Source: Endomicrobiales bacterium (GTDB lineage Bacteria; Elusimicrobiota; Endomicrobiia; Endomicrobiales; JALOBY01). From it: a DNA stretch of 64,000 nucleotides. A program made the position numbers. The stretch covers positions 1-64,000 of the forward strand of contig CAWCNJ010000007.1 of assembly GCA_963796955.1 (NCBI GenBank), read 5' to 3'. This document shows positions 3,001 to 6,000 of the stretch, in pieces; the first letter of the stretch is position 1, and every line of letters begins with the position of its first letter.

Positions 3001-6000
3001 TATGGCACCTGGCGAAAACGACGACACAAACGAGCCTTATTTACAGCGACAAGGCGAAGAACAATACGTACTATTACCGTGTGCGCGCCGTTAACAAAGC
3101 CGGCCGATATTCAGAATACGGCAATGTGGCGCGCGTGGTGAACTTTATAACGACGGATCAGATAATATCCGAGGCCTATAATTATCCGAACCCGTTCGAT
3201 TCGCGAGTAGCGCCCGCGACGATCCACTATTTATTGAACCGCGATACAGGCATAACGATGACGATATATGACGTATTCGGCAACATTGTTAAAAAGCTGT
3301 CATACAGCGCCGGCGCGATAGGCGGCCAGGTGGGCGACAACGAAGTAACGTGGGACGGCGCCGCCGAAAGCGGCAGCAAAGTAAGCTGCGGGATATATGT
3401 ATGCATAATAAAGAGCGATGCCTCGGGCCCCGGCAACGAACAACGGATAATGATCGGGGTAATCCATTAACGGCAGACCGGAGTCCGAAGTCCGGAGACC
3501 GGAGTAACGACGAACAACAGACAGAAGGAAAAAATGCAAGATAAACTGCGATTTGAGGATTTGATCGTCTATCAAAAGGCATTGGATATTGTTGAAGATG
3601 CGTATCGCATAACACGCTTGTTTCCTTCTGAAGAACGTTTTGCACTTACAAGTCAGCTTCAAAGAGCCGCCACTTCTATAGTCGCTAATATTGCTGAAGG
3701 ATGCGGACGGTTTCATAATACTGAACAGATTCAGTTTCTTAGGATGTCCAGAGGTTCGGCTTACGAATGTGTTGCGCTTTTACAAATCGCAAAACGACTG
3801 AAAGTAGTTAATGAAACGGATTATAATGCTATTTTTAAGAAGTTGATGGAAACAACAAGAATGCTTAGTGGATTGGTTGTTGCGACAAGGAAAAAATGAA
3901 CAAGGTCTTGCGGTTTCTCTTATCACTTATATTTTCTGCGTTTCTTCTCTCCGGACTTCGGACTCCGGACTCCGGACTGTTGTACGCCGACACCGCCGGT
4001 AGCGCGGGTGAGATCTTTTATTACGGGCAGGGCGCGCGGGCGATGGGTATGGGGCGCGCATTTACGGCGGTGAGCGACGACGCGAACAGCACGTATTGGA
4101 ACATGGCGGGGATGGGCTTGTTGCCGCAACAGCAGGTAACGGCCTCCCAGAGCACGCTGCTGGAAGGGGTCAGCTATAATTATCTTGGTTACGTGTACCC
4201 GTTCGTGAACCGCAACGCGCTGGGGATGAGCGTGAACATGCTTTCGACGCCGAGCGTGGTAAAGCGCGACGTCAACAACGTTATGAATGGTTCGTTCAGT
4301 TTTCAAGAGACCGGGATAGACCTGTCATACAGCCAGCCGCTGACGAAGGCGATGTTAATGGGCGTTGGTTTAAGATATTTAATGCGGTCGCTGGACACGG
4401 CGCAATCAGCATTGATCGGAATAAACGTGGCGGGCTTATATGATATAGCAAAGCATACGCGTGCGGGGATAAAGCTGGATAACGTGCTGGCATTTTCGCA
4501 GGGTGACACGGCCGATACCTTGCCGATGGCGATAAAAATGGGCATAGCGCAGCGATTCTTTGACGACCGGCTGATGCTGGACCTGGACCTTGACCCGATG
4601 ACCTCGGCGATATTTATGGGTGGGGAGATGCGTTTCCACCAGATAGCGGTGCGCATGGGGCTGAACAATAATGAGACCTCGGCGGGCTTTGGGTATTACT
4701 GGAAAGCGTATAGTTTTGATTACGCGCTGGTGTACAGCCCGTTGTTGTTGTCAAACCGGATATCGGTAAGCTGTTCGTTCGGGCCGAACCTGCAAAAAGA
4801 GCGGGAACGGCGCGCGATGGCGTTGTACCATAAGGCGGAAGATTCATACGGGGCGGGGAAATACCGCAAGGCGCTGGATTATTTCGCGCAGGGCGCGGTG
4901 CTGTATGATCCGATGGAATACCAGAAGAAGGCCGCAACCCTGCGGCGTTTCATAGAGCAATACGGCTTGGCGGACTCGGCGCTGGCGAAGAAAGGCGACA
5001 ACCAGCTGGTCAACGAGAATGTGGAGCTGACGAAGAATATGGTGCGAGCCTATCTTGACGGCAACCTGCCTGAAGCGGCGCGCAACGCGCGGATAATCCT
5101 GAGCACGAATTCCGGCAACGAGCTGGCCAAAGAGATCAGCAAAGCGGTGGGCAACGACGATAGTTTAGAGATGCAGGGCCTGACCAAAGAATCGATCATA
5201 GAGGTAAAACTGCAGCGAGCGGTGCAATACTTTAATGAGAAGAACTATGAAAAAGCTATTAAAGAATGCCGTGAAGTAATAGAGATAGACGCAAACAACG
5301 AGATGGCCTACGTACGATTAGGCTCGGCATACCTGATGTTCGGCGCCCAGAACGAGGCCCGGAAAACATGGGAAAAAGCGCTGGAACTAAACCCGAAGAA
5401 CAAAGACCTGCAAGACTTCTTAAAGAGGCTTAAATAGCAAGGTTTAACAGTTAATAACAACTAGATAGCAAAAGACGCACAAAATTCGTTGACAATATGT
5501 GCCGAACTTCTATATAATATATACATGCACAGAGCAAAAAGCCCACCCATGTGGTTTGCCGTCCCGCGTCCACTCTTCCGTCCACTTAGTCGTCCAGCAG
5601 ATGTTGTACGTCCACTTCGTTGTCCACCAGCGGGGACGTTTCGTCCCCTGTCGGGTCTGTTATCCGTTGTCTTATTATTTTGTTTTTCCAGCGTCTTCGC
5701 CGGCGAAGTCCAGCAGTTCGTACCTGCGTGGCGCTGGTCAGGCAGTAAAGCAAAGTACCACATGGACCGGCCTGACATAAAAAGCGACAGTAACGTGCTG
5801 GACAAATCGCCGCTGCTGCGCATAACGAATTTTGACCGGATGTCCATGACGGGGCTGAGCATCAGCCCAGACGGCAAAAAAGCGGCGTTCGCGAGTTTCG
5901 ACGGTGAATATATGCAGTTGTTCTGCGTGGACACCAAGACCGGCGCGACGCTTTCCCAGCTGACGCAGGAGACCGACAACAGCTGGATGCCGGTATTTTC

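Follow-up and report, generated by a model that had tools for sequence, protein, structure and literature searches.

Why does a small gene for a four-helix-bundle protein lie between two inverted arrays of a heptamer, and why does the same heptamer recur inside core genes of the same genome? This question is raised by a locus of an Endomicrobiales bacterium (G000, 81% complete), which we analysed in a window of 64,000 nucleotides (the whole stretch of DNA studied, contig C7:1-64000). A preliminary description had reported a PF05635 gene bracketed by inverted heptamer arrays, and this was borne out. The gene (3534..3899, plus strand, 121 aa) was assigned to PF05635/TIGR02436 based on profile searches (PF05635, 125.7 bits against a curated cut-off of 33.8, E 1e-36; TIGR02436, 115.8 bits against 24), conserved residues and a match of its predicted model to structure 2GSC. 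Its left arm (about 3475..3505, plus strand) consists of five AG[T/A] anchors and four CCG[G/A] spacers, together 31 nt, and starts 4 nt past the stop codon of an upstream gene with an FlgD-Ig domain at its C-terminal end (435..3470, plus strand; the real start is possibly further 5'). The right arm (about 3948..3978, minus strand) revealed the same five-anchor unit in inverted orientation, likewise over 31 nt, so that the two arms converge, with 87% complementarity over 31 nt. In the predicted RNA fold both arms pair with each other (z -4.4), and none of 100 shuffles was equally good.

The stop codon of the PF05635 gene overlaps the start of the following gene (ATGA), which encodes a PorV-like barrel with TPR according to ORF and profile searches (3896..5437, plus strand). 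The 17 first codons of this gene lie between the arms, and the right arm is translated in frame within its predicted signal peptide. Excision at the RNA level is unlikely here, because the start of the PorV-like gene would part from its body. A search of positions 2500-5500 against Rfam resulted in no match, and the cassette is bordered by protein genes and thus lies outside 16S/23S rRNA, while a scan for promoters and terminators remained at chance level. Among listed sequencing runs, no RNA run contained this genome; one DNA run (share 0.27) and two additions yielded no contig spanning the cassette and no joint, which bears neither way. As a control, inverted flanks at a score of at least 14 were detected at 6 of 1638 ORFs of the genome, two of them Y1 transposases. 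A relative of the same family (G001), in which PF05635 has no match, also possesses the PorV-like gene. There it begins 130 nt behind a gene that closely resembles the upstream gene at its C-terminus, with no cassette between them.

A census of the pattern CCG[GA]AG[TAC] revealed 21 arrays in the genome, 20 of them with exactly four units and one with two, while in three Markov-4 controls 0, 2 and 0 arrays were counted, none of them longer than two units. The unit pattern occurred in none of 80 other genomes of the order. Together with its leading triplet, each four-unit array can be read as five AG[N] anchors with four spacers (31 nt). When two degenerate arms are included, this main family comprises 22 arrays, namely six converging pairs, one flanking the PF05635 gene and five enclosing spacers of 11-40 nt that showed no mutual resemblance by eye, and ten singlets, of which five are sense and five antisense relative to the host gene or RNA. 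A scan for any five-anchor array led to 34 period-7 matches (including two overlapping duplicates) compared to 0 in three shuffles, and revealed at least three further unit families (AGGCAAT, AGTCTCG and an AGC-based one) for which this 81% complete genome holds no matching gene. Across all unit families of the genome, eight of eight close pairs converge. The dispersal of arrays stated in the preliminary description was therefore confirmed, and a fixed length of four units, doublets without a gene and other unit families could be added.

High variability was restricted to two positions of the unit. For comparisons among arrays, the two degenerate arms and one array whose first unit is atypical were excluded; the remaining 19 were all distinct, at least 2 variable positions apart and no more similar than random draws of units, and are therefore not clones of one arm. 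Adjacent units were also no more alike than expected by chance (16 vs 15.4 in the 19 arrays). Simple slippage as their origin was rejected, since identical neighbour units are not in excess. Target-site duplications were not detected: the own flanks of 33 arrays were no more similar to each other than shuffled pairs (p 0.9).

With regard to their location, our own ORF scan assigned 13 of the 20 four-unit arrays to credible genes, 2 of them at the very 3' end of the reading frame, and placed 2 on doubtful ORFs, 2 in c-di-GMP-I riboswitches and 3 in intergenic regions, in agreement with the 15 overlapping genes and 2 in riboswitches counted before. The array in PurL lengthens a loop, as had been proposed: compared to 25 orthologues, it has 39 residues here and 29 in 15 of them, a difference of exactly 30 nt, and in G007 and G009 the loop carries arrays of other units. 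A different situation was found in a radical SAM gene (TIGR03960), in which the array-bearing segment has 43 residues in 21 of 30 cases and, with an array, 44 in G000, 43 in G009, 43 in G004, 41 in G007 and 48 in G003; in these five genomes the stretch is overwritten by five different units in a single orientation throughout. AroB is only 0-3 residues longer than five orthologues, and the array therefore replaced sequence. The earlier view that arrays replace a variable loop in AroB and the radical SAM gene thus held against orthologues. Altogether, arrays were observed in two forms: they either add 30 nt to a loop (PurL, a giant protein) or, as in the radical SAM gene and AroB, take the place of about ten codons while gene length hardly changes. 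Identical sites carry different units in different lineages and paralogues.

Seven paralogous giant proteins displayed empty and filled states within this one genome. Three possess a short loop and one a singlet, which adds 30 nt relative to two of the short-loop ones; among the others, the main unit forms a complete doublet in one, a second has a single arm with a remnant, and a third carries, at the same place, a doublet of another unit. The unit thus differs wholesale between paralogues that are about 83% alike in DNA. In paralogues as well as orthologues the loop sequence itself is host-like, with the arrays laid upon it. Of the three c-di-GMP-I riboswitches, one is empty and two contain an array within the loop of a stem; both arrays lie past the end of the Rfam matches, and the loop of an extended second stem was assigned by eye. 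Several doublets and singlets are located at operon junctions or in signal peptides, as cassettes also are. The unit at the radical SAM site equals the arm unit of a PF05635 gene of the respective genome in G000, G004 and G003, including TGCAAA[A/T] of G004, a unit that had already been reported at both places in a relative. In G009 it more loosely resembles the single arm of a truncated PF05635 gene, and none of the six PF05635 matches of G007 had AGGGGCA, the unit of its radical SAM site.

To what extent such arms accompany PF05635 genes in general was examined in several sets of loci. In the phylum, about 239 PF05635 matches were found in 201 genomes. Of these matches, 90 were taken, either for their high score or because their genome holds several copies; inverted arms at a score of at least 14 were identified at 63 of the 86 with full flanks, compared to 7 of 86 in direct orientation and 0.76% of cross-genome pairs. 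This left 23 loci without arms at the score-14 threshold, and the former caveat that only 4 of 28 Elusimicrobiota loci had passed a two-arm test was not upheld in this set. Metagenome loci displayed arms in 39 of 63 cases (6 of 69 were left out because of short flanks; cross pairs 2.9%), a few of these positives being non-tandem inverted repeats. Four of seven PF05635 matches of the cyanobacterium Moorena bouillonii had arms, with one distinct unit each, and with all sets pooled 146 of 219 distinct loci passed on score and same period. Unit periods ranged from 6 to 10, so that the restriction to heptamers and nonamers given before does not apply. The median arm measured 31 nt at period 7 (230 arms), 35 nt at period 8 (40 arms) and 43 nt at period 10 (6 arms), i.e., four periods plus 3 nt, computed without presupposing an anchor G; arms of periods 6 and 9 (8 each) do not follow this rule. 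Between four and five units were counted in only 148 of 292 arms; five anchors were the mode (52 of 113 arms).

In a set of 57 loci, AG was present in the upstream arm at 50. At 14 of them the next gene begins before the downstream arm and reads through it, so that the arm often encodes the hydrophobic core of the signal peptide; at 28 the arm is followed by the start, and 15 have no same-strand ORF downstream. That the unit is specific for the genome, as first described, was not supported: when arms of different PF05635 genes from the same genome were compared, only 10 of 322 pairs matched, and one genome (G093) holds at least six units. Instead, unit similarity rises with protein identity, from 0.57 below 30% identity (n=162 pairs) to 0.89 at 60% or more (n=8 pairs), and in a quick tree the units cluster by protein clade. 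On these sequence comparisons, the unit is best described as belonging to the gene lineage, not to the genome. No adenine-specific variation was detected in the units, with spacer substitution rates at period 7 of 0.18 for T, 0.19 for C, 0.17 for G and 0.135 for A. RVT_1 was found in one of five array-rich genomes. An adenine-mutagenic reverse transcriptase as the origin of unit variants was rejected based on this missing adenine bias and the scarcity of reverse transcriptases in array-rich genomes.

A connection to a known repeat was suggested by the structural match, since 2GSC is XCC0516, a five-chain homologue of our protein. For Xanthomonas campestris, the accessible part of PMC4692102 describes 186 GGGAATC repeats, mostly of four units, with 70 convergent pairs (Xcc) and some intragenic copies, which were interpreted as G-quadruplexes, a structure that GGGAATC oligonucleotides adopt in vitro; XCC0516 is named nowhere in that part. 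We had set beforehand that XCC0516 orthologues should have flanks of GGGAATC repeats. Three Xanthomonas genomes (from three species other than Xcc ATCC 33913), one Luteimonas and one Vulcaniibacterium genome each revealed one PF05635 gene with converging GGGA[AT]T arms. The flanking genes, judged by their motifs, are presumably accB and accC. G[GT]GA[AT]T arms were present at 23 of 23 accB-accC loci examined; the locus is constant across several genera, and the gene stands alone between its arms. Among 100 genomes of the Xanthomonas family (G286 unscored), GGGANTN arrays (at least 10 matches) were found in 36 of 49 with the gene and in 9 of 51 without a detected gene, about half of the family thus lacking it; as related genomes are dependent, the Fisher p of 2e-8 overstates this.

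Units of other clades were followed in the same manner. GGGACC gave 32-64 matches in four of four genomes with GGGACC arms and 0 in 91 of 101; 5 matches each were found in G261, whose degenerate GGGACC arms were recognised later, and in G297, one of the 51 without the gene. As a blind test GGGACC failed, since G282 has 39 matches but AGTGAGG arms at its gene. GTGA[AT]T resulted in 67-577 matches in four of four genomes with such arms and 0 in 82 of 101, and in 23-87 matches in seven other genomes, in three of which no PF05635 gene was found. A GGGAATC run also occurs in Vibrio jasicida, in which PF05635 was not found. A comparison of close relatives, with 153 kb of G204 set against 200 kb of G206, revealed neither a movement of arrays nor a joint left by excision, and no site that is cleanly empty in one and filled in the other: over the 153 kb of these two Xanthomonas genomes the arrays stayed in place and varied in length only, apart from one doublet site that is replaced by an unrelated gene in G204. 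The available text of PMC4692102 gives 83% of repeats as kept between two species. Long slipped arrays exist as well. Altogether, we consider it very probable that gene and repeat family are linked. Of the former proposal that PF05635 genes are the core of a repeat-spreading element, their role as hub of dispersed repeats and the writing of these repeats into core genes were corroborated, and movement was not.

The predicted model of the protein displayed four helices (pLDDT 95), with fold matches to 2GSC (Z 20.7, rmsd 1.0 over 113 residues), 2RLD (16.8) and Avd (14.7-15.3); among the families listed by the fold search, no catalytic one stood out from the background of helical bundles. As 2GSC and 2RLD have five chains each, the protein is probably a pentamer like 2GSC and Avd. 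In 211 sequences, Q41, S48, E55 and E78 were conserved at 99%, N52 at 97% and R44 at 96%, with R59 and S75 included the range being 88-99%, and our 121-aa protein retains the near-invariant Q41, R44, S48, N52, E55, G56, R59, S75 and E78. A similar residue motif and the insertion of such genes in cas loci are mentioned in the accessible part of PMC3936711. According to the portion available of bioRxiv 10.1101/2023.10.23.563531, all five protomers of Avd take part in binding a 31-nt RNA, whose flipped bases sit in the crevices.

Based on these data, we favour, with a probability of roughly one half, the reading that each PF05635 gene confers specificity on one family of short tandem arrays that belongs to it; the pentamer would bind five anchors and host enzymes would write the arrays. 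The rule of four periods plus 3 nt would fit the pentamer of 2GSC, with five subunits probably facing five anchors; a parallel for this is TRAP, which binds (G/U)AG repeats. Each subunit crevice might hold one G-anchored unit of a single-stranded array, which would set the length at five anchors. The bound array could then be copied or recombined by host repair or recombination enzymes into tolerant sites such as surface loops, signal peptides, RNA loops, operon junctions and, often, older arrays. Such writing would resemble short-patch insertion or conversion. Cut-and-paste is disfavoured because of the absence of target duplications in the arrays compared, their non-clonal nature and the overwriting; a retro route is disfavoured because a reverse transcriptase is missing in four of five array-rich genomes and no adenine bias was seen. 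The gene itself may persist since it targets its own arms and since the start of the following gene often lies within the cassette. Weighing against the favoured reading are the negative comparison of close relatives, the failed blind test (G282), arrays in genomes with no gene detected, the unmatched units of G000 and G007, the 23 armless loci of the phylum and the arms that depart from the length rule. That the pentamer serves as a repeat-writing jig, perhaps even as the catalyst, which lays or rewrites a five-anchor array unit by unit and thereby overwrites in frame, is a tentative idea that we hold to be doubtful.

Other explanations have to be weighed against this reading. The protein could be a nucleic-acid binder useful to the host, e.g., in RNA processing or translational coupling, with the arrays as its sites, arisen by slippage and kept by selection. 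The single accB-accC locus across several genera, the persistence of arrays between species, the long slipped arrays and spacer positions that vary as in a tolerant binding site would agree with this, but the singlets are evenly divided between sense and antisense, neighbouring units resemble each other at chance level, unlike the outcome of slippage, and the gene is missing from half of the Xanthomonas-family genomes. Moreover, ten codons overwritten with hardly any change in length, by a different unit in each of five lineages, and the wholesale unit change in paralogues about 83% alike are hard to obtain by slippage and point mutation, so that we regard a host-useful binder as rather unlikely. 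We rank below it the possibility that the pentamer itself is the enzyme: its cluster of invariant polar residues would cleave strands or transfer them, and would thereby insert an array or exchange it with no dedicated partner. A conservation of 96-99% at Q41, R44, S48, N52, E55 and E78 would exceed what a scaffold usually needs, the gene is alone between its arms at the accB-accC loci, and four of five array-rich genomes revealed no reverse transcriptase. However, its clear fold matches are 2GSC and 2RLD, both without an assigned function, and Avd, which is separated by about 40 A from the active site of its reverse transcriptase and is not thought to do chemistry, and the conserved residues could instead form a guanine pocket.

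Less probable again is a movement of the whole hairpin cassette with a helper enzyme in the manner of an intervening sequence (IVS), after which doublets and singlets would be the remnants of gene deletion. The build of the cassette corresponds to that of the Coxiella IVS as far as described in the accessible part of PMC4990558 (28-bp terminal stem, heptamers, S23p), all close pairs of the genome converge as cassette arms do, G001 has the equivalent gene junction free of a cassette, and several doublets and singlets share the operon junctions and signal peptides with cassettes. Nevertheless, a stop-bearing cassette of 500 nt in purL, aroB or the radical SAM gene would imply a lethal or null stage, the doublet spacers appear mutually unrelated by eye, and the loops of paralogues and orthologues are host-like with arrays laid on top. 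The helper nuclease PF13366 was not found in this genome, and no arrays adjoin its Y1 transposases at the three loci scanned. A preference for four units that stems from G-quadruplexes or another DNA structure, independently of the gene, is very improbable: while GGGAATC oligonucleotides fold as G-quadruplexes in vitro (PMC4692102, accessible part), the length rule also applies to units without GGG, including CCG[GA]AG[TAC], and the unit tracks the gene. Quadruplexes are thus contradicted as a general cause and may be a side effect in G-rich units.

Our analysis joins two old puzzles, namely the S23p/IVP four-helix-bundle family, whose function is given as unknown in the available part of PMC4990558, and the over-represented four-unit heptamer repeats with convergent pairs. 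New here are the rule of four periods plus 3 nt across periods, the observation that units track genes from genome to genome, the connection with the repeat already published for Xanthomonas, and the overwriting of the same site by different units. In the largely open literature available to us, no publication tying PF05635 to dispersed tandem arrays was found. If a repeat-writing pentamer proved true, the S23p/IVP family would gain a function, the abundance of four-unit heptamers in xanthomonads, cyanobacteria and many uncultured phyla would be accounted for, and proteins would steadily be supplied with novel sequence in loops and signal peptides. Should the arrays be driven by the gene, the system would represent a second class of gene-plus-repeat replicators beside RAYT-REPIN, one that edits core proteins in their loops and signal peptides, and possibly a compact means of writing short sequences into DNA.

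Compared to known systems, the arrays differ from MITEs and insertion sequences in that neither target-site duplications nor near-identical copies of one master were detected. With diversity-generating retroelements the protein shares the fold of Avd, whose pentamer binds a 31-nt RNA via inter-protomer crevices (PDB 4DWL, 8UB7; sources accessible in part), yet it scores below the Avd family cut-offs (26.1 vs 40 and 29.8 vs 80 bits), the units show no adenine-specific variation, and no reverse transcriptase was found beside the PF05635 gene and no RVT_1 in this 81% complete genome. Like the S23p IVS of Coxiella burnetii, as presented in the accessible part of PMC4990558, the cassette places a PF05635-family protein inside a stem of about 30 bp with tandem heptamers on the 5' side; there, GACAGAT heptamers were noted in one element and the ORF was judged expendable, and GACAGAT also flanks one of our loci (L103). 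Unlike that IVS, the cassette has the terminal stem but is situated in an mRNA operon, outside 16S/23S rRNA, with the right arm translated in the next gene and the unit dispersed genome-wide. The GGGAATC repeats of Xanthomonas and GGGGA(C/T)T repeats of Nostoc (PMC4692102, part available) agree in the preference for four units, convergent pairs, occurrence on both strands and some intragenic copies; they were read there as G-quadruplexes without reference to XCC0516, whereas in three other Xanthomonas species we found the XCC0516-like gene flanked by the GGGAATC repeat.

In layout, the system resembles RAYT-REPIN systems, as far as described in the accessible parts of PMC3116915 and bioRxiv 10.1101/2022.05.22.493013: the gene has copies of its repeat on both sides, every gene is associated with a single repeat group, the repeats are dispersed as singlets and as inverted doublets whose spacer varies, and the gene persists for long at one locus, here in the accB-accC clade. 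The parts themselves differ. In place of a Y1/HUH tyrosine transposase there is a 121-aa four-helix bundle, and in place of a short palindrome (REP) a tandem array of five anchors, whose copies are often in frame within genes, may overwrite sequence and are non-clonal. At the cassette only PF05635/bAvd profile matches were obtained; the Y1 genes of the genome are located elsewhere, and three of these loci were scanned without finding such arrays. We propose a selfish gene-repeat system with a RAYT-REPIN-like layout that would be built from other parts, and through which short repeats may spread by a route that has not been described before.

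At the edges of the five-anchor arrays, the motif AC[AG][AG]C was found directly outside 11 and directly inside 9 of the 33 arrays of the Endomicrobiales genome (G000), compared with a background of 2%. It was not confined to one unit family, and is possibly a remnant of an older array family or reflects a target preference.

Further secreted proteins of this genome also have five-anchor arrays within their predicted signal peptides (C2:77530, C4:192195, and C6:47909), with the units AGGCAAT and AGCAGGG and no PF05635 gene beside them. PorV-like genes of the related genomes G004 and G009 (loci L007 and L009) likewise revealed five-anchor arrays of other units in the predicted signal peptide, and no PF05635 gene adjoined them. 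Upstream of the PorV-like gene in the relatives G001 (L006:1380-1510) and G006 (L005:900-1490), REP-like palindromes were recognized by eye, so that several kinds of small repeats gather at this junction. Elsewhere in the window, a single ORF (7354-8994) fuses the C-terminal domain of FliF with the middle and C-terminal domains of FliG.

A tandem pair of c-di-GMP-I riboswitches (C4:174309-174700) carries an array in the second member only. Regarding the giant proteins, the one encoded at C5:3518-6664 harbors a different palindromic insert in its second variable loop (around residue 470), which comprises 180 nt versus 99-120 nt in most paralogues. One paralogue revealed a period-9-like array in this second loop.

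Two longer PF05635-like genes with open frames of about 245 aa (C4:334825-334968, loci L003 and L492; C10:47497-47709, loci L002 and L491) contain period-9 arrays within their own coding regions, which in L491 form an inverted pair (846-876 and 917-947); one of the two genes also displayed a weak Top1 zinc-ribbon match. Two other repeats of this genome were not of the five-anchor type, namely a perfect 70-nt AGCA run (C10:14677-14746) and an 8-mer in four copies (C5:204134-204167). Inverted repeats of 53 nt, 81% complementary and not tandem arrays, flank a 125-aa ORF without a Pfam match (L488:210-728; C8:280909-281427). In addition, an AAA_14/DUF4143 ATPase gene lies between two 88-nt direct repeats, each a long palindrome itself (L489:429-1879; C9:11828-13278).

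In two Xanthomonas genomes, arrays at one site each continue directly into arrays of a second heptamer (L483:5070-5140 in G206 and L475:13282-13370 in G204), these adjoining heptamers being GCCGGCG and GGGGTGC, and both kinds look as if they were stacked.
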